Assembly (NCBI GenBank): GCA_965200155.1
Contig: CBDATR010000024.1
Span: forward strand, 128,001-192,000
DNA: 64,000 nucleotides
Direction: 5' to 3'
Source of the DNA: Nitrosopumilaceae archaeon
Lineage (GTDB): Archaea; Thermoproteota; Nitrososphaeria; Nitrososphaerales; Nitrosopumilaceae
Position numbers and translations under genes: made by a program. Under the pieces are notes generated by a model. That model saw only the letters and a list, made by a program, of their open reading frames with translations, searched no databases and was not told where the DNA came from. Below are positions 12,833 through 62,416 of the stretch, in pieces (positions within the stretch are counted from its first letter, which is position 1; every line of letters begins with the position of its first letter).

Positions 12833-15334
12833 GTATGAGTTCACGTGTTTTGATCATTCACTAAGATATAGATTGGTATGACAATATTTTACTTAAATAC
12901 CAAATTTGCAATAAGAATCTAATGAGAAGACGCCGGTCCTATAAGGAATTGGAACTGGAAAATAAACTTCTTCAGGATACCCTTGCGTCTACCGAGAAAG
13001 ATCTTGCACATTACAAGGAACGTGTGAGAGTATTGGAAGCATATGTGTCCCGCACCACAAAAGAAATACGAAATCTCACACAAGATTTCCAAATGTATGA
13101 GTTCACGTCTTCCGGAATCTTATGCACAAATCACATTAACTGTCGCGATCAATTGTGCGTAAATTTAGACACAGGTGAACTCATACTTCCAAATTATTAG
13201 GAATTATGTAAATGAATTGAATGAGAAATTAAAAGAAAAACAGGGGAAAATTGCGGTACTCACAACGCGACTTAAATATTATGAGAATGCTCACTCGCCA
13301 CCATCCCTTCAATCCCTCCAGTACAAGAAGCGAAAACAGGAGGAGCAGAAGCGAAAACAGGGAGATAATAAGCAACAGAAAGAAGCCAGTACGAAATCAG
13401 CCAAAAAGGCTGGCGCGCAAAAGGGACACAAGGGGGTTTCCCGTTCCCACAACCCCGGCAGAGTAGTGCATCACACCTTTGAGTACACACCAATATGTGA
13501 GTGCGGCAATATAATGACAAAAATTGGTTGGAAACAACGACACATAACGGAATTAATACCAGCCAAAATAGAGGAGACCCTTCATGTGATAGAAATGGCT
13601 GCATGCAAGTGCGGCAAAAAACAACTGGCCCCAGCAGCGGGCGTCCCAAAGAGTGGTGATTTTGGAGTTCAATTATGCGGTGCCATCACTGCATTGCGTG
13701 CGGAAAAGATTCCAATAAAACGCATACCTGTAATTTCGAAGGATCTCTTCGGCCTAAATATATCGGTGGGTGCAGTAAACAACATAATTGCCAGGGCCGC
13801 CGATGCATGTGAATCATTTATGGAAACAATTCATGAGAATATAATAAAATCACCCAGCATTCATGTGGACGAAACTGGTATATCACTGGCGGGTAGGCGT
13901 GGCTGGGTATGGGGGATGCGAGCCGAAGAGTGGATGATATACAAAAGTAGGAGTTCAAATGTAGTGAACAAATACCTGAACGGTTACCAGGGAGCGATAG
14001 TAACGGACAGGTACGTTGTGTACCGCCGGTTTGATGACGGTGGGAAGCACCAGTTGTGTTGGGCGCATTTATTGCGCGATACCCAGGCATTACATGCAGG
14101 ATTCTATATCGATCCCGGTGCTCAGGACGCCCGGATCAAACTTGACAACGACCTGAAAGGATTGTTCCGGAGCGCACGGGAATCCCTGAATCACTGCGGG
14201 CCGTCCGCGCAATTACGACACTCATTTGAGACAGGAGCAGAATCCATTCTGCATCAGTACTGTGATGTTGATGATACTGAACTACAAAAGAAGGTAAAAG
14301 GATTGAATAAGGCCATACCATGCATGTTCGTATTCTTAGAATATGACTGTGTAGAGCCCACCAACAATCCAGCGGAGCAGGCTTTGCGATACGCAGTGGT
14401 ATTCCGCAAGATTAGTGGTCAGATAAAGGGTGGCGAAAGGGCAATGCGCCGCATGTCTACATTTGTATCATGTGTTCAGACATGGAGGGCTCAAGGCCTT
14501 TCTGTTATGAACGAGGTTGCTGCCAGAATGCAGTTATAATTAAAAAACTGGGACGCATTTGCCAGGGCCGCCGATGCATGCGAATCATTTATGAAAACAA
14601 TTTATGAGAATATAATAAAATCACCCAGCATTCATGTGGACGAAACTGGTATATCACTGGCGGGTAAGCGTGGCTGGATATGGGGGATGCGGGCCGAAGA
14701 GTGGATGATATACAAAAGTGGGAGTTCATATGTAGTGGACAAATACCTGAACGGTTACCAGGGCGCGATAGTCACAGACAGGTACGTTGTGTATCGCCGG
14801 TTTGATGACGGTGGGAAGCACCATCTGGGCGCATTTATTGCGCGATACCAGTATATTACATGCAGGATTCTATATCGATCCCGGTGATCAGGACGCCCGG
14901 ATCAAACTTGACAACGATTTGATCCGGAGCGCACGTGAATCGCTGCGGGCCGTCCGCGCAATTACGACACTCATTTGAGGCAGGAGCAGATGCATCAGTG
15001 CTGTGATGTTGATGATACTGAACTGCAAAAGAAGGTAAAAGGATTGAATAAGGCCATACCAGGTATGTTCGTATTCCTAGAATATGACAGTGTGGAGCCC
15101 ACCAACAATCCGGCGGAGCAGTGGAACCGGTTCTGATACGCAGTGGTATTCCGTAAGATTAGTGGCCAGATAAAGGGTGGTGAAAGGACCATGCGCCGCA
15201 TGTCCATATGTGTTCAGACATGGCGGGCTCAGGGCCTTTCTGTAATGAACGAGGTTGCTGCCAGAATGCAATTATAATTAAAAAACTGGGATGCATTCTA
15301 TCTTATTATGTGATCAAAACACGTGAACTCATAC
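12833..15334 (+). mobile_element. IS66-family single-ORF (ISBst12-like) element interrupted by a MITE, followed by a tandem partial decayed copy (~14559-15334)
   Basis: 24-bp TIR GTATGAGTTCACGTGTTTTGATCA; transposase 12922-14539 with NSHSPPS-like, GAQKGHKG, HVDET, TDRY, QLCWAHLLR, TNNPAEQALR motifs. Confidence 0.92.
13095..13186. mobile_element. 92-bp MITE inserted in IS66 transposase
   Basis: TSD TTCCAAAT; removing 100 bp restores the frame seen in the 29637 copy. Confidence 0.96.
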
Positions 15335-26225: not shown

Positions 26226-27146
26226 ATGCGGCGCACAATGATAATGGGAATCGGCGTGGCTGCTTCTCCCATAATATTTGCCCTGCTTGCATACCCGGAC
26301 AGCTTCAGCCTGAGCTGGAACCAGGGACGGGGCGGCTTTCTGTTTGCCTTGGCCTTTCTGGGTGCAGAGCTTGTGGGATTGCGCCTAGCCCCCAGCATGC
26401 GTCGCGTACTGTTCACTGTGCCACTGGCCATAGGCGTCATGGCATATCTGGCCATCATGGAGTCGGGAATGCAGGATGTTCTGGCGGCATCTGCAGAAGA
26501 GTATGGCGTACAGCTGGTATACTCGTGGATATGGATGTGGGACTTTTTGGTAATGACCTCATTCCTGGTTGCGGTATTTGTCATATACTTTGGCAAAAAG
26601 TGGGTTCGGGTGGCCCCCGCGGCACCCATGTTCCTGGGCGGCAGTGCCATAATACTGTCCCTGGACGCGTTCTTTCCTTATGACACGTTGGGTCCGCTAC
26701 AGTACATTGTCCCGTATCTGGTGCAGGCCAATGTATGGCTCATAGGATTGCTGGATCTGGGAACTGCCACTGCCCGTGATAATGTCATGTTTCTTCGGGG
26801 GGATCATGGCCCCATGGTACTACAGGTGTTCTGGCCATCCGCGGGTGTCCACAGTATTATCATATACTCGCTGGTTATGGGCGCCTTTCTGCTCAAGATG
26901 AACATAATACGACATCGCAAAATCATGTACTTTTGCCTGGGAATATTGGGCACCATAATCGTGAACATGATCCGTATATTCTCGCTGTCGTGGTACGCGC
27001 TTAAGGTGACCGCGGATCCCCAAAGGTGGGAAGAGTTCCACTCGGTAGCTGGCGAGATAATGTTTCTGCCCTGGCTCTTTGCATTCCTGTTTGTAGTAAT
27101 GTGGATAGAGACACGCAGGATGCGGCGCGCTCAGGCTCAGACGTAG
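26226..27146 (+). CDS. Thaumarchaeosortase (exosortase/archaeosortase family)
   Basis: LSWNQGRGG, VFWPSAGVHS (Ser at the catalytic Cys position), NMIRI, EEFH. Confidence 0.85.
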   Translation: MRRTMIMGIGVAASPIIFALLAYPDSFSLSWNQGRGGFLFALAFLGAELVGLRLAPSMRRVLFTVPLAIGVMAYLAIMESGMQDVLAASAEEYGVQLVYSWIWMWDFLVMTSFLVAVFVIYFGKKWVRVAPAAPMFLGGSAIILSLDAFFPYDTLGPLQYIVPYLVQANVWLIGLLDLGTATARDNVMFLRGDHGPMVLQVFWPSAGVHSIIIYSLVMGAFLLKMNIIRHRKIMYFCLGILGTIIVNMIRIFSLSWYALKVTADPQRWEEFHSVAGEIMFLPWLFAFLFVVMWIETRRMRRAQAQT

Positions 27147-28225
27147 TCTGTTATACTCTGCTGGCCCCGTACGGTACTTAGCTCGCTGACCTTTATGCCA
27201 AGTCGGCGTACGTATTGTGGCTGCTCCTGCATAGCCTCCTGAACCAGAATATGCGCTATCTCCTGCATCTTCTCCAGGCTGCTAGTGGAGTTTCTTACCG
27301 TGCGGGAGCGGGAACGGTTGGTCATGTCCGTGTGTACAAAAATGACGCTGACCGTACGAAATCGCAAACCGCGCTCTGTAACTATATCATGCAGTATCTT
27401 ACACAGTGATTGTATCTGGGAGCGCATCTCGGTATGGCTCTTTGCATCCTGTTTTAGGGTAACAATCTTGCTATATTGCAGGCTAGGCGGTCTCTTCTTT
27501 ACCGGTTCATCATTTATGCCCCGGGCGGAATTATACATGAATGTGGCACTCTTGCGCCCAAACAGTCTCTGCATCTCGAATATGTCCTGGCTCTTTAGTT
27601 GGGCTATGGTACTAACGCCCATCTTGTCCAGCTTCTGAACGGTCTTTCCGCCTATCCCCGGAATATCGCTGGGCTTGAGTGATTCAAGAAATGATTCTAA
27701 TGATTCCGGTCTTACCACCGTGAGTCCGTCGGGCTTTTTGAAGTCTGATGCAATCTTGGAGAGCAGCTTGTTCTGAGTCACGCCCACCGAGCAGGTCATT
27801 CTGAGTGATTCCCGAATCTCATTCTTCATCTGCTGGGCTATATGCGCGGCTCGCGTAAGTTCTCCGCCCACCCGTGCAGTCACATCAAGATAAGCCTCAT
27901 CCCTTCCCACATACTCGAATATGTCTGCAAATCGCTGCATTATCTCCATGGCCTTCTCGGATATGTCTGAATAGTAATCAAAATCAACCGGAATAAACTC
28001 CGCGTCTGTATCCCGTAATAATCGGCTGGCCTGGTGTATTGGCATGCCTGAGCGTGCACCAAACTTTCGTGCCTGGTAGTTGGCTGTGGCCACGGCGCCG
28101 CTTCCGCCACCTCGATTGGAGTATATGCATACGCAGACTGGTATGGTTCTGAGCCGCGGTGTCCTTATCTCCTCACACTGGGCATAAAAGTAATCAAAGT
28201 CAACATGGAGTATTGCACGATCCAA
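27137..28225 (-). CDS. dinB: DNA polymerase IV (Y family)
   Basis: HVDFDYFYAQCE, ATANY.AR.FG, GRDEAYLD, KIASD..KPDG; C-terminal PIP-like QQSITDYV. Confidence 0.95.
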   Translation of the reverse strand: MDRAILHVDFDYFYAQCEEIRTPRLRTIPVCVCIYSNRGGGSGAVATANYQARKFGARSGMPIHQASRLLRDTDAEFIPVDFDYYSDISEKAMEIMQRFADIFEYVGRDEAYLDVTARVGGELTRAAHIAQQMKNEIRESLRMTCSVGVTQNKLLSKIASDFKKPDGLTVVRPESLESFLESLKPSDIPGIGGKTVQKLDKMGVSTIAQLKSQDIFEMQRLFGRKSATFMYNSARGINDEPVKKRPPSLQYSKIVTLKQDAKSHTEMRSQIQSLCKILHDIVTERGLRFRTVSVIFVHTDMTNRSRSRTVRNSTSSLEKMQEIAHILVQEAMQEQPQYVRRLGIKVSELSTVRGQQSITDYV

Positions 28226-28247
28226 CGTTCCCTCTAAGGAATAATTC

Positions 28248-28600
28248 TATGGCGTCAACCATAAGTCTTGCGTGGTGTCTCGTGCCAAACTGCTCATCCG
28301 GTAAGATGTGACTTGTCATCACTTTTCCCCCTGATGTCTCCGGACGGCTCGCTAGGCGTCTAAACATATGCTTCCAGCTCACTGGGAACCAGCGTTGCCG
28401 GATGAACGTCTCCGGACGGCTCGCTAGGCGTCTAAACATATGCGCAAGGGAATCACGATTACTGGTGTGGCTTGCTCATGTCTGAGGAATGCGTGAACTT
28501 GTGTCCCGCATTTATGGATAATTATTGCTGCCACTATGCTACAAAGCATGATTTGAGATGTGGATACCAATCAGTACAAATGGTTCATTGTCAGACAATA
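28248..28600 (-). mobile_element. Relic 3' part of a second TIR-bounded tnpB element (C-terminal remnants, putative omegaRNA region, right TIR)
   Basis: Reverse complement aligns by eye with 41640-41774; TIR at 28248-28270; deleted remnants TSQ..C and IH..INAGH upstream. Inner boundary approximate. Confidence 0.65.
28336..28443 (-). repeat. Exact 36-bp direct repeat x2 with 36-bp unique spacer (CRISPR-like unit; no cas genes nearby)
   Basis: GTCTCCGGACGGCTCGCTAGGCGTCTAAACATATGC at 28336-28371 and 28408-28443. Confidence 0.9.
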
Positions 28601-28632
28601 CATCAATATAGAATATCCATGTATAATTAGCC

Positions 28633-28860
28633 GTGAGTGAGCCTGTAACAGTAGATGAAGAGGGTCCAAAGATAAGACCTGAGCTCATGGAGACTGAGAA
28701 ATTGTATCATTGCATATACAAGAATTGTGTTCTGTTATTCTTTCTGGATGATCAAAAGTTTCTATGCTGTTATGAGGTAGATGAACCTGATATAGTAAAA
28801 AAGATACAGAACTGCGACGGAAGTATAGAAGATATACTTGCCCAGTACGGTGGACTATGA
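28633..28860 (+). CDS. Hypothetical protein
   Basis: 75-aa acidic ORF. Confidence 0.65.
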   Translation: MSEPVTVDEEGPKIRPELMETEKLYHCIYKNCVLLFFLDDQKFLCCYEVDEPDIVKKIQNCDGSIEDILAQYGGL

Positions 28861-29273: not shown

Positions 29274-31491
29274 AGACCTTATGCGCATGATTGACAGTAA
29301 CAGCTTAGGTTGCTTCAAACTGGGGTGTATTTTATGGTACACAATCCGTCAAGCATAAACAATGTGAATAACATCTGCCAGCACTAACGTATGCCGTGAT
29401 TGCAAATGTCGTGTAGTGGGGCGACTGGATCTTGATGACATATATCATGAGTGAGCTAAACGGTTATCACAAAACCCATTAATTTAGTGGATTTTCTGAT
29501 GAGTAATATTCGAATTATAATATCACGGAAATTATGGACAGATATTTGTATGAGTTCACGTGTTTTGATCATTCACTAAGATATAGATCGGTATGGCAAT
29601 ATTTTACTTAAATACCAAATTTGCAATAAGAATCTAATGAGAAGACGCCGGTCCTATAAGGAATTGGAACTGGAAAATAAACTTCTTCAGGATACCCTTG
29701 CGTCTACCGAGAAAGATCTTGCACATTACAAGGAACGTGTGAGAGTATTGGAAGCATATATGTCACGCATCACAGAAGAAATACGAAATCTCACACAAGA
29801 TTTCCAAATTATTAGGAATTATGTAAATGAATTGAATGAGAAATTAGAAGAAAAACAGGGGAAAATTGCGGTACTCACAACGCGACTTAAATATTATGAG
29901 AATGCTCACTCGCCACCATCCCTTCAATCCCTCCAGTACAAGAAGCGAAAACAGGAGGAACAGAAGCGAAAACAGGGAGATAATAAGCAACAGACAGAAG
30001 CCAGTACGAAATCAGCCAAAAAGGCTGGCGCGCAAAAGGGACACAAGGGGGCTTCCCGTTCCCACAACCCCGGCAGAGTAATGCGCCACACCTTTGAGTG
30101 TGCTCCAATATGTGAGTGCGGCAATATAATGACAAAAATTGGTTGGAAACAACGACACATAACGGAATTAATACCAGCCAAAATAGAGGAGGCCCACCAT
30201 ATGATAGAAATGGCTGCATGCAAGTGCGGCAAAAAACAACTAGCCCCAGCAGCGGGCGTCCCAAAGAGTGGTAGTTTTGGGGTTCAATTATGCGGTGCCA
30301 TCACTGCATTGCGTGCGGAAAAGATTCCAATAAAACGCATACCTGTAATTTCGAAGGATCTCTTCGGCCTAAATATATCGGTGGGTGCAGTAAACAACAT
30401 AATTGCCAGGGCCGCCGATGCATGTGAATCATTTATGGAAACAATTCATGAAAATATAATAAAATCACCCAGCATTCATGTGGACGAAACTGGTATATCA
30501 CTGGCGGGTAGGCGTGGCTGGGTATGGGGGATGCGAGCCGAAGAGTGGATGATATACAAAAGTAGGAGTTCAAATGTAGTGAACAAATACCTTAACGGTT
30601 ACCAGGGAGCGATAGTCACAGACAGGTACGTTGTGTATCGCCGGTTTGATGACGGTGGGAAGCACCAGTTGTGTTGGGCGCATTTATTGCGCGATACCAG
30701 TATATTACATGCAGGATTCTATATTGATCCCGGTGCTCAGGACGCCCGGATCAAACTTGACAACGACCTGAAAGGATTGTTCCGGAGCGCACGGGAATCC
30801 CTGAATCACTGCGGGCCGTCCGCGCAATTACGACACTCATTTGAGACAGGAGCAGAATCCATTCTGCATCAGTACTGTGATGTTGATGATACTGAACTAC
30901 AAAAGAAGGTAAAAGGATTGAATAAGGCCATACCATGCATGTTCGTATTCTTAGAATATGACTGTGTAGAGCCCACCAACAATCCAGCGGAGCAGTGGAA
31001 CCGGTTCTGATACGCAGTGGTATTCCGCAAGATTAGTGGCCAGATAAAGGGTGGCGAAAGGGCAATGCGCCGCATGTCTACATTTGTATCATGTGTTCAG
31101 ACATGGAGGGCTCAAGGCCTTTCTGTTATGAACGAGGTTGCTGCCAGAATGCAGTTATAATTAAAAAAAACTGGGATGCATTCTATCATATTATGTGATC
31201 AAAACACGTGAACTCATACAGATATTTTTCAAGAATTTCTTGTATCTGGTATGCTTGTGCATAATGTGTAAATTATGCAACCCGGATACTACGAGTAGAT
31301 CTTCCCGGAATTCCTCACGAATGCCATCATATACCTGACTTAATCTACGATATACCTTTAGCATTCGAATTACATGCTCGATTAATGTGCGCCTTTTTGA
31401 TACATATTGGTTGTATTTCCTTTCAGTGTTAGTGAGTGATTCCCTACCCCTGTATGGAATTATGACCTTTGCGCCGGGTAGGAAGTCTTTC
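29274..31491 (-). mobile_element. IS5-family (ISL2-like) relic: right end plus 3' part of transposase, split by IS66 and truncated by a MITE
   Basis: 29274-29547 and 31220-31491 match the reverse complement of ~60700-61309. Confidence 0.9.
29548..31219 (+). mobile_element. Full-length IS66 element (1672 bp); transposase 29637-31010 ends at a premature in-frame TGA
   Basis: Perfect 24-bp TIRs; TSD AGATATTT. Confidence 0.95.
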
Positions 31492-40894: not shown

Positions 40895-41483
40895 ACTATA
40901 CCTGCCGGGTATTGGTGTGGTGAGAACAACCAAACCAATCGATCATTCCCGGGACATGCACTCATTCAAGATAGTGGAACGAGTAACCAATAGTAGGGAG
41001 CGTCAATTCGAGATTCACATCAATATACGGGAGAAACCACCGACCGACCGGCGTTGCTCGCGGCGCGGATGTCGGCGGGAAACATCTAGCTGTAACAGTT
41101 GACACGAATGGTAGAACGATAATTCACAACACGAGACATCGTTCCATATTGCGGGAGATTAGCGCACTCCAGAGTATTAGAACGCGAAAGGGTAAGCGCA
41201 GGAAGCGAAAGATTGAGAAACAAATCACTCAATTACGACAGAAAGCGAATAATATCGCGAACGACTCCACGAATAGAGTAGTCCACACGGTCACCAAAGG
41301 TGTGGACAAGGTAATACTAGAGGATTTATAGCCGAAATCAATGACCAGTCATGGCGGGAACCGGAAAAGAGCAATGAACCGCCCCATGCGCGAGAACCGG
41401 GTAGGCGAGTTCTGCCGGAGAGTGGGGCAAAAGTGCGAGGCACTGGGGATTGAATTGGTGGCCGTGCCAGCGAAATACACGAG

Positions 41484-41503
41484 GGGCGGTTTACCCGTCC
41501 AAC
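41484..41503 (-). repeat. 20-bp REP-like hairpin insertion
   Basis: GGGCGGTTTACCCGTCCAAC flanked by GAG/GAG; removal restores KYTSQTCHVCG. Confidence 0.85.
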
Positions 41504-41654
41504 GAGCCAGACCTGTCACGTGTGTGGACACGTTGACGACAAATCACGATCAACTAGGGACACATTCAATATGTAACCAGGAATTTCACGCCGATATCAA
41601 CGCGGCGTTTAGTGACCGGTTTCCCTGTATGGGGCGGCAGAGCGTGTCGTCCGG

Positions 41655-41677
41655 GGGGGAACCGTTCCCCGCCCAAC
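41655..41677 (-). repeat. 23-bp REP-like hairpin insertion
   Basis: GGGGGAACCGTTCCCCGCCCAAC flanked by CGG/CGG; removal restores collinearity with the 28-kb relic. Confidence 0.75.
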
Positions 41678-41893
41678 CGGAGGCGTCAGGGCGGGAATAA
41701 TGGTGACAAGCCAAAGCCATGTACTGTCCAGGAACGAGGTGCCATGTTCTCAAAGACTTATGGTAGCCGCTATAACGGCGCCCGGAGTGCAGTACATGTA
41801 GATATTAGATCTGATCATGGGGCTCCTGGACGGACGCAAACTCTTGCATTATTCTCACATACCCGCGTATGCAAGAACACCAGCCCAAATTTA

Positions 41894-42587: not shown

Positions 42588-43517
42588 TCAATAGTGCGAA
42601 AAGTAAGTCCGCTTAGGATCCGGCGTACAGTAGTTCAGATTGCACAAGCCATATGGTAAAGAGAATAACAGAGGAATCAAGACAAGAGGCGTTGTCACAA
42701 CCAACATAGCTCAAGACCTGAAACAAGACACGTACGAAGATTGTGAACCAGAGAACGAGAACGACTCGAGTAAAGATGGGCAGGCCCATGATACCAATCA
42801 CCGCCACCCAGATACGAATGGTAACTGAAGCATACAGCAAGGATCCCGCCGGAGTAGTACGTATTGCAAAGAGACTGAGACAGAATTACAATATATCGCG
42901 CAGTATATCACATAATGAAAAAGAACGGCACGACAGTCTCATCACCTGCAAAGTCAGAGTGGGTACGCTATGAGCGTAAATATTCCAATGCAATGTGGCA
43001 TTGGCATGTCATGAAAGATGAGCGCTTCAGGGGGACTGAATCTCATAGATGATGCATCCAGGTGTATAGTCGGAGCGGCACTATTTGAGCATGCAACCTC
43101 AGAGAACGCCGTTCTATTACTGAGACTGGCAATGAAACGATTCGGCGCCCCAGCATCTCGGATAACGGCGCGTGTTTCGTAGGACAATAAAAGGGCAAAA
43201 AGAACTGGAAACCCACTATTCTAGGAAGAACTGCTGGATCAATACATCATACTAATCAATTCCAGGCCATACCACCCGCAGACAAATGTCAAACTGGAGC
43301 GCTTCCATGGAATGATTGAGGACGAGATATGGTATTATGACAGTCTCCGGGATTATGTAGACTACTACAATGAGAGAAGATTGCACTTCTCACTGGATAG
43401 ATAACGGCGAAACACCACTCCAGGAATAAAAAGGCGACCCAGACAATTAGGGCAAATGATGCAAAATGGATGGAGCGGGATGCCAATGACTAGCGGACCG
43501 ACTTTTCATACATTACA
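42588..43517 (+). mobile_element. Decayed IS481-family element (subfamily 2, 930 bp)
   Basis: Perfect 16-bp TSD ATTAAGAGGTTTATGC (42572-42587 / 43518-43533). Confidence 0.93.
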
Positions 43518-51266: not shown

Positions 51267-51483
51267 CGTTCTATTACTGAGACTGGCAATGAAACGATTC
51301 GGCGCCCCTGCATCTCGGATAACGGCGCGTGTTTCGTAGGACAATAAAAGGGCAAGAAAAGCTGGAAACCCACTATTCTAGGAAGAACTGCTGGATCAAG
51401 ACATCATACTAATCAATTCCAGGCCATACCACCCGCAGACAAATGGCAAACTGGAGCGCTTCCATGGAATGATTGAGGACGAG

Positions 51484-61413: not shown

Positions 61414-62416
61414 GTATGAGTTCACGTGTTTTGATCATTCACTAAGATATAGGTATGAGTTCACGTGTTTTGATCATTCACTAAGATATAGATTGGTATG
61501 GTAATATTTTACTTAAATACCAAATTTGCAATAAGAATCTAATGAGAAGACGCCGGTCCTATAAGGAATTGGAACTGGAAAATAAACTTCTTCAGGATAC
61601 CCTTGCGTCTACCGAGAAAGATCTTGCACATTACAAGGAACGTGTGAGAGTATTGGAAGCATATGTGTCCCGCATCATAAAAGAAATACGAAATCTCACA
61701 CAAGATTTCCAAATTATTAGGAATTATGTAAATAAATTGAATGAGAAATTAGTAGAAAAAGACAGGAAAATTGCGGTACTCACAACGCGACTTAAATATT
61801 ATGAGAATGCTCACTCGCCACCATCCCTTCAATCCCTCCAGTACAAGAAGCGAAAACAGGAGGAGCAGAAGCGAAAACAGGGAGATAATAAGCAACAGAC
61901 AGAAGCCAGTACGAAATCAGCCAAAAAGGCTGGCGCTCAAAAGGGACACAAGGGGGTTTCCCGTTCCCACAACCCCGGCAGAGTAGTGCATCACACCTTT
62001 GAGTACACACCAATATGTGAGTGCGGCAATATGATGACAAAAATTGGTTGGAAACAACGACACATAACGGAATTAATACCCGCCAAAATAGAGGAGACCC
62101 TTCATATGATAGAAATGGCTGCATGTATGTGCGGCAAAAAACAACTGGCCCCAGCAGCTGGCGTCCCAAAGAGTGGTAGTTTTGGGGTTCAATTATGCGG
62201 TGCCATCACTGCATTACGCGCAGAAAAGATTCCAATAAAACGCATACCTGTAATTTCGAAGGATCTCTTCGGCCTAAATATATCGGTGGGTGCAGTAAAC
62301 AACATAATTGCCAGGGCCGCCGATGCATGTGAATCATTTATGGAAACAATTCATGAAAATATAATAAAATCACCCAGCATTCATGTGGACGAAACTGGTA
62401 TATCACTGGCGGGTAG
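61414..62416 (+). mobile_element. IS66 left-end stub (61414-61452) plus 5' half of IS66 (61453-62416), truncated by a MITE
   Basis: Two IRL copies; ORF 61542-62534 reads into the MITE. Confidence 0.92.

Follow-up and report, generated by a model that had tools for sequence, protein, structure and literature searches.

A 36-nt repeat–insert–repeat unit in an archaeal genome as the probable scar of one misplaced CRISPR spacer

A 36-nt sequence repeated exactly around a 36-nt insert, at positions 28336–28443 of the window, is very probably the scar of a single off-target spacer integration by the resident type I-G Cas4/Cas1 fusion and Cas2. The window is the whole stretch of DNA that was analysed, 64,000 nt in length (C24:128001–192000 of assembly G000, a metagenome-assembled genome of 2.38 Mb in 51 contigs that is 87.6% complete). 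A sequence-only reading of this stretch had proposed that the unit arose either by ectopic acquisition of a spacer through Cas1–Cas2, or as an intermediate on the way from TnpB to a type V system. The first of these proposals is strongly supported by the lengths of repeat and insert, by a donor in the fbp gene, by the existence of an empty allele and by some 70 sister events elsewhere in the genome. The object of interest is this genome-wide record of misplaced spacers, and not a proto-array derived from TnpB.

The unit, its donor and its alleles

The sequence GTCTCCGGACGGCTCGCTAGGCGTCTAAACATATGC occurs twice in the window, on the plus strand at 28336–28371 and 28408–28443, each time without a mismatch. 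None of 100 dinucleotide shuffles produced any match, and the 36 nt between the two copies (28372–28407) are unique within the window, so that the exact repeat around a unique insert, as originally described, is borne out. When the neo-repeat was searched for genome-wide, as had been advised, the 2.38-Mb assembly yielded only these two copies at up to three mismatches and no longer array; there was likewise no match in a metagenome contig collection from which records of G000 may be excluded. The further claim that the window holds no cas genes agrees with our searches, in which the sole cas1 and cas2 matches lay on another contig, C9. The unit and its neighbours are laid out as follows.

27137–28225, minus strand: Y-family DNA polymerase (DinB/IMS family), the left neighbour (PF00817, 2.4e-41; PF11799, 3.8e-13)
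28250–28345, minus strand: 3'-terminal block of a decayed TnpB-type element, with AAGACTTATGGT (alignment to window 41480–41800)
28336–28371, plus strand: neo-repeat copy 1 (exact match; one of two genome copies)
28336–28407, unstranded: 72-nt indel, repeat plus spacer, present or absent between strains (metagenome contigs and unitigs)
28372–28407, plus strand: ectopic spacer of 36 nt, a perfect copy of C24:85416–85451 in fbp (36/36 identity)
28408–28443, plus strand: neo-repeat copy 2 (exact match)
28633–28860, plus strand: 75-aa ORF, the right neighbour, kept in relatives (comparison with relatives)
29637–31010, plus strand: IS66-family transposase gene with an unoccupied HS1 site at 29697–29732 (PF03050, 1.8e-31; HS1 with two mismatches)
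41341–41775, plus strand: TnpB relic (the 41.6-kb copy), 3' end and terminal motif (PF07282, 3e-05, 24.5 bits, cut-off 26.3)

A 79-aa ORF that spans the 28336–28443 unit has no Pfam match. Among 40 other genomes, all belonging to other species, only dinB and the 75-aa ORF gave matches (65–76% identical, with dinB at 72% on the DNA level in genomes of the same genus); the region 28226–28632 had no match in any of them, and hence they offer no empty site. The gap between dinB and the 75-aa ORF measures about 122 nt in the relative G006, compared with 407 nt in G000. The window also contains an archaeal rRNA operon and the RNase P RNA.

The right-end motif AAGACTTATGGT lies on the minus strand at 28258–28269, and about 100 nt of that strand (28250–28345) are alignable with the 3'-terminal part of the 41.6-kb TnpB relic. 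In that relic, whose TnpB model match is at C24:169050–169610 and whose motif is at C24:169753, the homologous site is single-copy and unoccupied. The integration target is found at the inner edge of the aligned block, and only the last ∼10 nt of the 36-nt neo-repeat fall within the part that is clearly alignable with the 41.6-kb copy. With up to one mismatch allowed, the motif itself occurs 133 times in the genome, and terminates several different element families. The TnpB-element context reported by the sequence-only reading can therefore be kept in part: the right-end motif and the alignment of the 3' block stand, whereas no TnpB coding remnant was detected at the unit with the guided_TnpB model (E≤0.001), the nearest match being 12.7 kb away. 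The same model finds 37 matches in the genome at this threshold, all of them below the family cut-off and 13 with internal stops, so that these look like relics.

The insert is identical over 36/36 nt to C24:85416–85451, its sole other copy in the genome, which lies beyond the window, 71 kb upstream of the unit. The donor gene is that of a host fructose-1,6-bisphosphate aldolase/phosphatase (fbp), with PF01950 matching at 6.1e-148, above the cut-off, and NF041126 at 9e-154 and 512.1 bits, just below the curated cut-off of 520. The spacer thus matches a gene of the host and not a foreign element. One objection raised at the outset, that the insert might belong to the ordinary scaffold of other members of the element family, falls away, as the insert aligns to the fbp gene. 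Metagenome contigs with the flanks of the donor site show up as loose ends.

Seven sponge metagenome runs from two studies (P1 and P2) contain the stretch, and four of these runs (X1, X3, X4 and X5) were compared. A 10152-nt contig from study P1 (X1, DNA) omits exactly the 72 nt at 28336–28407, and a 2890-nt contig from the same study (X3, an RNA library) omits the same 72 nt, which defines the empty allele; these contigs are assemblies and attest the presence of that allele only. Apart from the 36 nt over which the position of the gap is ambiguous, the P1 empty-site contigs show no difference over 1001 nt. The filled allele is seen in study P2, where 60-nt unitigs of X4 and X5, runs which may be the source of the G000 assembly, span 28342–28401 and 28378–28437, that is, both junctions. 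The depth of the junction unitigs is 62 in X4, against 77–86 in the flanks, and 31–33 in X5, against 33–37 in the flanks. The metagenomes thus contain both alleles, the empty one in P1 and the filled one in P2. Since a precise deletion through the direct repeats is also possible, this polymorphism may reflect either gain or loss.

The type I-G system and sister units across the genome

Beside an array on contig C9 lie the genes for Cas2 and for a Cas4g/Cas1g fusion (NF049935, 1.1e-213; 710.7 bits, where the cut-off is 560). This array has 289 repeats of 36 nt, ATTTCCGCAGCCTAACGGTTGCGGCCTCATTGAAGG, of which 287/289 are identical. The 288 spacers of this array are 34–57 nt long, and 249 of them fall within 36–38 nt (85 of 36 nt, 101 of 37 nt and 63 of 38 nt). 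The cas1 and cas2 genes for which a search had been recommended are thus present in the genome, and the 36/36/36 unit has the geometry of their array, with an equal repeat length and an insert within the range of the spacers. Donor–recipient pairs connect the contigs of the assembly, and the C9 module is taken as part of the same genome. On the other side of the array are a Cas3-extension gene, Cas3g, Csb2 and Cas7g, with IS5 fragments upstream of cas7g. A type I-G large subunit (Cas8g) was not found with TIGR04113, TIGR04106 or the Cas8g2 protein of the relative G005 as query, nor among the small ORFs upstream of cas7g; as the large-subunit models matched no control genome and the assembly is incomplete, the absence of Cas8g is not established. 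A 20-kb stretch of the canonical array (C9:71001–91000; the array ends at 92087) had no match among 50,697 phage records, and the CRISPR repeat had none in the genome contig collection, from which records of G000 may be excluded.

The genome outside the array was scanned for exact direct repeats with a repeat length of 33–41 nt and a period of 68–78 nt. The scan returned 49 pairs and, once a tandem repeat on C2 had been dropped, 48 units, each with its own repeat and insert. These are locus-specific duplications of 33–40 nt around inserts of 32–39 nt, with periods of 71–78 nt (71 nt in three units, 72 nt in 20, 73 nt in 14, 74 nt in five, 75 nt in five and 78 nt in one). When repeat length and insert length were set against each other on a grid, 41 pairs fell in the cell covering repeats of 35–38 nt and inserts of 34–39 nt, adjacent cells held 0–3, and the rest of the row of length 35–38 held 2–23 pairs per cell. 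Allowing 31–35 identities out of 36, with tandem repeats filtered out, added 26 imperfect units, some of which, such as those on C2, C29 and C38 (small contigs of low GC), may not be genuine. Exact and imperfect units together come to 74, with 67 distinct spacers in 52 target families.

The periods of the ectopic units do not differ from those of the canonical array (chi-square p=0.18). Of the 22 units with a known donor, 17 fit a duplication of exactly 36 nt, the others fitting 33, 37, 37, 38–39 and 40 nt. The apparent lengths of repeat and insert trade off against each other (33–40 and 32–39 nt, with a sum of 71–78), as is expected from chance identity at the junctions. The inserts fold slightly better than random 36-mers (−5.7 versus −4.8 kcal/mol, p=0.0045).

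Some of the units extend long reading frames by 24 codons, and some break them, reducing frames of 495, 523 and 326 codons to 57, 84 and 77, respectively. The period is divisible by three in 26 of the 48 exact units, compared with 35% (102/288) in the canonical array (binomial p=0.006). Of the 52 target families, 31 are situated in repeated DNA, compared with 333 of 1000 random positions (p=2.5e-4). The excess of in-frame periods and the excess in repeated DNA fit purifying selection acting on a near-random mutagen.

Type I-G Cas4/Cas1 fusions above the cut-off are present in seven of 61 genomes of the family, G000 included. A relative of the same genus, G005, has a type I-G module with a 36-nt repeat and a Cas8g2-like gene between cas3g and cas7g. 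In a 400-kb sample of G005, comprising an array of ∼9 kb and hence about 390 kb of non-array DNA, there was one candidate unit (L039:17928), where about eight would be predicted from the density in G000. A 360-kb sample of G003, a genome of the same genus in which no Cas1 was found, gave 10 size-matched pairs, all of which belong to tandem coding repeats of 75 nt at two neighbouring loci, so that none counts as a genuine unit. As there are few units in the I-G-bearing sample of G005, the module alone does not explain the burst in G000. Possible special causes are the loss of an effector subunit, an altered leader or host factor, and a relaxation of selection in a symbiont laden with insertion sequences.

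Origin of the spacers, target preference and hot spots

Of the 67 distinct ectopic spacers, 31 are self-derived, having a near-full-length donor elsewhere in the genome, and for 25 of these 31 the donor is single. The corresponding figure for the canonical array is 0/288 (Fisher p=3e-26). The sole match outside the array among the 288 canonical spacers is itself an ectopic unit: the spacer of the unit at C25:4760 shares 26 nt, at an offset of nine, with canonical spacer 58 in reverse complement, and the source of the overlap is absent from the assembly. It follows from this overlap that one invader was sampled into both places.

Our preferred reading of the contrast in self-derived spacers is that the ectopic units would escape the autoimmune purging of self-spacers because they are not made into crRNA. 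An alternative is that interference was recently lost, in line with the failure of three queries to find a large-subunit gene and with the IS5 fragments upstream of cas7g. However, after such a loss the leader end of the array should hold self-spacers as well, and none were seen there. The PAM of type I-G systems is TTN; inspection by eye of the sequence beside 22 donor sites revealed neither TTN nor another motif. No orienting signature was found in the terminal bases of canonical and ectopic spacers.

Taken together, the targets show a slight but significant likeness to the CRISPR repeat. They share on average 12.4/36 identities with it, compared with 11.2±0.29 in random sets of matching size, and the observed mean was not attained in any of 400 null sets; the excess resides at positions 3, 5, 9, 11, 12 and 26. 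There was no excess of hairpins in the 52 targets, whose fold energy equals that of random 36-mers (p=0.44), and by eye no leader-like flank was seen beside them. A de novo motif search of the targets by Gibbs sampling, run with no null control, yielded no more than a weak terminal GCA(A/T)N, on one side, which was not used.

Sites in multicopy elements have been struck repeatedly, in the same 36-nt register and with different spacers. The foremost example, HS1, falls within the stretch of IS66-family transposase genes that encodes the N-terminal region. With up to five mismatches allowed, HS1 has 66 loci, 13 of which are occupied (six with two repeats, six with three and one with four), and occupancy at the other sites is 5/82 loci for HS2, 2/6 for HS3 and 1/74 for HS4. 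At up to six mismatches there are 15 HS1 arrays, which were read in the transposase sense, in which likeness to the CRISPR repeat is also greatest. Twelve of them carry a shared old spacer, ‘a’, and in each of these it occupies the downstream position. Newer spacers lie upstream of ‘a’, beside the constant flank, in six arrays (‘b’ in five, ‘d’ and ‘e’ in one); the three arrays that do not carry ‘a’ read R-c-R, R-f-R and R-b-R-b-R. The divergence of the repeats rises downstream. The HS1 mini-arrays thus show the polarity of a genuine CRISPR array. Since spacers ‘a’ and ‘b’ are common to several HS1 copies, the mini-array has travelled with the insertion sequence. The 72-nt unit at C24:460667 preserves the reading frame of the transposase, which remains open over 503 codons.

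These observations bear on the question of whether the birth of CRISPR arrays is under way in this genome. In its full form the proposal is that the type I-G integrase inserts spacers throughout the chromosome and, at favoured sites and above all the IS66 one, adds them directionally as it would beside a leader, giving proto-arrays (two to four repeats, in frame, co-transcribed with the transposase gene and spread by transposition); that the events at TnpB ends are the raw first step postulated for type V arrays; and that RNAs of at least some proto-arrays are used by a Cas or TnpB protein. We put this forward tentatively, as a rather unlikely possibility.

Explanations of the unit and their significance

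In the explanation that we consider by far the most probable, the integrase, with Cas1–Cas2 the likely catalyst, would have taken up 36 nt of host chromosomal DNA from within fbp. Two strand transfers, 36 bp apart on opposite strands, would then have taken place at a non-CRISPR site, their spacing reflecting a ruler set for the 36-nt repeat, and gap repair would have left a copy of the 36-nt target to either side of the insert. By chance, the site attacked would have lain within the 3' end of a defunct TnpB-type element between dinB and the small ORF, an intergenic position where an insertion of 72 nt may have been tolerated. The same reaction would have occurred at least about 70 times in the genome, with preferred sites being struck repeatedly. 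The unit itself is probably inert and without function. The neo-repeat shares 13/36 identities with the CRISPR repeat (null mean 10.5, 95th percentile 14), and has neither the predicted 8-bp stem of that repeat nor its ATTGAAGG 3' end; this dissimilarity makes processing into crRNA unlikely.

The trade-off between repeat and insert lengths might suggest instead that some process unrelated to CRISPR adds ∼72 nt, through a short genomic copy and a compensating duplication of the target, and the slightly better folding of the inserts, as well as the scarcity of units in the I-G-bearing relative G005, could be taken in the same direction. Such a process is very unlikely: chance identity at the junctions accounts for the trade-off, 17 of the 22 units with a known donor fit a fixed 36-nt duplication, and the periods match those of the canonical array. 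Moreover, one ectopic spacer overlaps the source of a canonical spacer, HS1 has grown with CRISPR-like polarity, and the sample of the Cas1-less relative G003 contains no unit. We know of no other mechanism for a duplication of repeat length. Equally, the idea that a duplicated omegaRNA segment serves as a repeat, with the insert as a guide for a TnpB or Cas12-like nuclease, in an intermediate between TnpB and type V, draws on the position of the target within the 3'-terminal block of a TnpB-type element, and on the proposal, in the accessible part of PMC10691335, that CRISPR arrays are likely to have originated from omegaRNAs. It is also true that a TnpB match is found within 1 kb of eight of the 52 target families, compared with 1.7 expected at random (maximum of seven in 2000 trials). 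We nevertheless hold this intermediate to be highly improbable, since the locus has no TnpB match and none of the 37 found elsewhere in the genome reaches the cut-off, repeat and insert have the geometry of the type I-G array, the inserted sequence comes from a host housekeeping gene, and the same scar is found at about 50 unrelated sites, which, with the 13/36 repeat match, also speaks against a nascent array, the second proposal of the sequence-only reading. The enrichment of targets in repeated DNA generally explains part of the association with TnpB, which in our reading is mainly tolerance of insertions in dead mobile DNA. From their coordinates, only one of the nine units near TnpB matches, C1:11039, lies between a TnpB C-terminus and the end of the element, and the 28336–28443 unit is the sole other one so placed; the position of the latter inside the presumed omegaRNA region looks incidental.

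The perfect match of the insert to fbp raises the question of whether the unit could be a functional mini-array, yielding a self-targeting, CreA-like or regulatory crRNA that guides the type I-G effector to this gene. Regulatory ectopic repeats are known, as described for CreTA in the available part of PMC9458426. However, the unlikeness of the neo-repeat to the CRISPR repeat argues against it, as do the lack of the unit in near-identical strains and the failure to find a Cas8g gene, and the derivation of 31 of the 67 ectopic spacers from scattered self genes fits unselected sampling and not regulation; we can lend this function scarcely any credence. As the genome is metagenome-assembled and in 51 contigs, an artefact of assembly or sequencing was a natural concern, and had been named as such by the sequence-only reading. 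The chance of this is negligible: unitigs of two runs bridge both junctions, the other study shows a precise empty site, the donor is identified, and about 70 sister units have the identical geometry.

For isolated arrays, Shmakov et al. 2020 (CRISPR J 3:535) reportedly proposed off-target integration into repeat-like sequences as one route of origin, and the repeats of such arrays are said there to resemble mostly the cas-adjacent ones. In contrast, each unit here has its own unrelated repeat. A closer precedent is given by the ‘neo-CRISPR’ loci of Nivala, Shipman and Church 2018 (Nat Microbiol 3:310), obtained in an Escherichia coli type I-E system over-expressing Cas1–Cas2, for which the accessible text of bioRxiv 10.1101/148544, PMC11788318 and PMC6698737 was consulted. 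According to the same partial sources, natural signs in two other species were regarded as ‘circumstantial evidence’. As far as these accounts go, both cases feature a spacer-sized insert flanked by a repeat-length duplication of a non-CRISPR target, and in both the reuse of one site can found a new array. They differ, within the same limits, in that the events described here are natural, belong to an archaeal type I-G system with a Cas4/Cas1 fusion and occupy about 52 sites in one genome; in addition, nearly half of the spacers are self-derived, and there are polarised mini-arrays in an IS66 transposase gene that have been copied by transposition.

Off-target integration into repeat-like non-CRISPR DNA was also observed in vitro for Cas1–Cas2 of Pyrococcus furiosus by Grainy et al. 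2019 (PMC6698737), and is covered in the available part of a review (PMC8047081). From the accessible text of the former, the targets in the P. furiosus system, like those in G000, share particular sequence features with the repeat; that work is an in vitro plasmid assay, whereas the alleles described here are chromosomal and either fixed or polymorphic. The omegaRNA origin of arrays put forward by Altae-Tran et al. 2023 (PMC10691335) resembles the present case, in the part of that paper available to us, in that the site of integration falls within the 3'-terminal part of a TnpB-type element, the place expected to encode an omegaRNA. The present case is unlike it in that there is no nuclease gene, the repeat owes its length to the type I-G integrase, and many other sites carry such units. 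The site at the TnpB end illustrates at most that a resident integrase can write into such elements. A limited literature search found no report of a natural genome with dozens of ectopic units, or of polarised neo-arrays borne on insertion sequences.

The genome is a natural record of dozens of off-target events, dated by divergence and with known donors, and for the 28336–28443 unit this record includes an allele with the empty site. The contrast of 31/67 self-derived ectopic spacers with 0/288 canonical ones makes the sampling of self-DNA, as against its selective removal, measurable in nature. The hot spots and the polarised growth of mini-arrays show how arrays may be born, and these mini-arrays are mobilised by an insertion sequence. 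A CRISPR integrase can also be a measurable source of insertion mutations, by which reading frames are broken and among which in-frame periods are over-represented.

Integration hot spots inside and outside the window

The window carries three unoccupied copies of HS1 and two of HS2, 36-nt integration targets that are used repeatedly in this Nitrosopumilaceae genome (G000).

Hot-spot copies in the window
12982-13017, HS1, unoccupied, 2 mismatches
29697-29732, HS1, unoccupied, 2 mismatches, inside the IS66 transposase gene at 29637-31010
61602-61637, HS1, unoccupied, 2 mismatches
43114-43149, HS2, exact, unoccupied
51271-51306, HS2, exact, unoccupied

Counted genome-wide, 13 of the 66 HS1 loci are occupied, all elsewhere in G000, with one to three ectopic spacers per site. 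A neo-array of four repeats and three spacers lies outside the window within an IS66 copy (G000:C24:500845-501098). Its downstream-end spacer is the oldest and is also present in other IS copies, and upstream of it are two unique spacers. HS2 is occupied at 5 of its 82 sites in G000, with a different spacer in each. By eye, the stretch surrounding the HS2 site at 43114 resembles a decayed insertion sequence.

Ectopic and canonical spacers

The ectopic spacer at G000:C25:4760-4868 and spacer 58 of the canonical type I-G array (C9:75210-75246) share a 26-nt overlap in opposite orientations, and so have one common source, which is absent from the G000 assembly. The sampled part of the same-genus genome G005 yielded a sole candidate ectopic unit, a 39-nt duplication with a 36-nt insert at L039:17928-18041 (G005:C1:1887928-1888041); its target contains CTGATTGAAGG, which is similar to the 3' end of G005's own repeat.

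Surroundings of the canonical CRISPR locus

Upstream of cas7g are IS5-family transposase fragments (L017:6716-8750; G000:C9:98716-100750), in a position that could be expected to hold the gene for a large subunit. Three queries found no Cas8g or Cas8g2 in the G000 assembly; in G005, a Cas8g2-like gene lies between cas3g and cas7g. The stretch adjoining the CRISPR locus, L017:8753-17976 (G000:C9:100753-109976), is a possible defence island: anti-phage proteins of the DUF1156 and DUF499 types and a DrmD-like SNF2 helicase of DISARM match it weakly, with scores under the cut-off. Truncated ORFs for a HaeIII-like restriction endonuclease and a Dam-like methyltransferase are found a few kb upstream of cas4/1 (L005:12563-13912; G000:C9:64563-65912), and imperfect ectopic units are located at C9:64790 and C9:65224.

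Contig composition and mobile elements

Many short G000 contigs (C2-C4, C6, C8, C14-C18, C26-C29, C32-C33, C38-C40, C44-C45, C47, C49 and others) have a G+C content of 35-42%, compared with 45-51% in the large ones, and bear tandem repeats, (GT)n among them. These contigs possibly belong to another organism and were binned here by mistake.

All 37 TnpB hits in G000 fell below the cut-off, and 13 contain internal stops. Across the whole genome, ∼133 elements of several internal types terminate in the motif AAGACTTATGGT(G)NC(C)GCTATA, and ∼20 of these termini are TnpB-relic ends; window examples are at 28258-28269 and 41753-41764. It seems that many non-autonomous families are moved by one transposition system.
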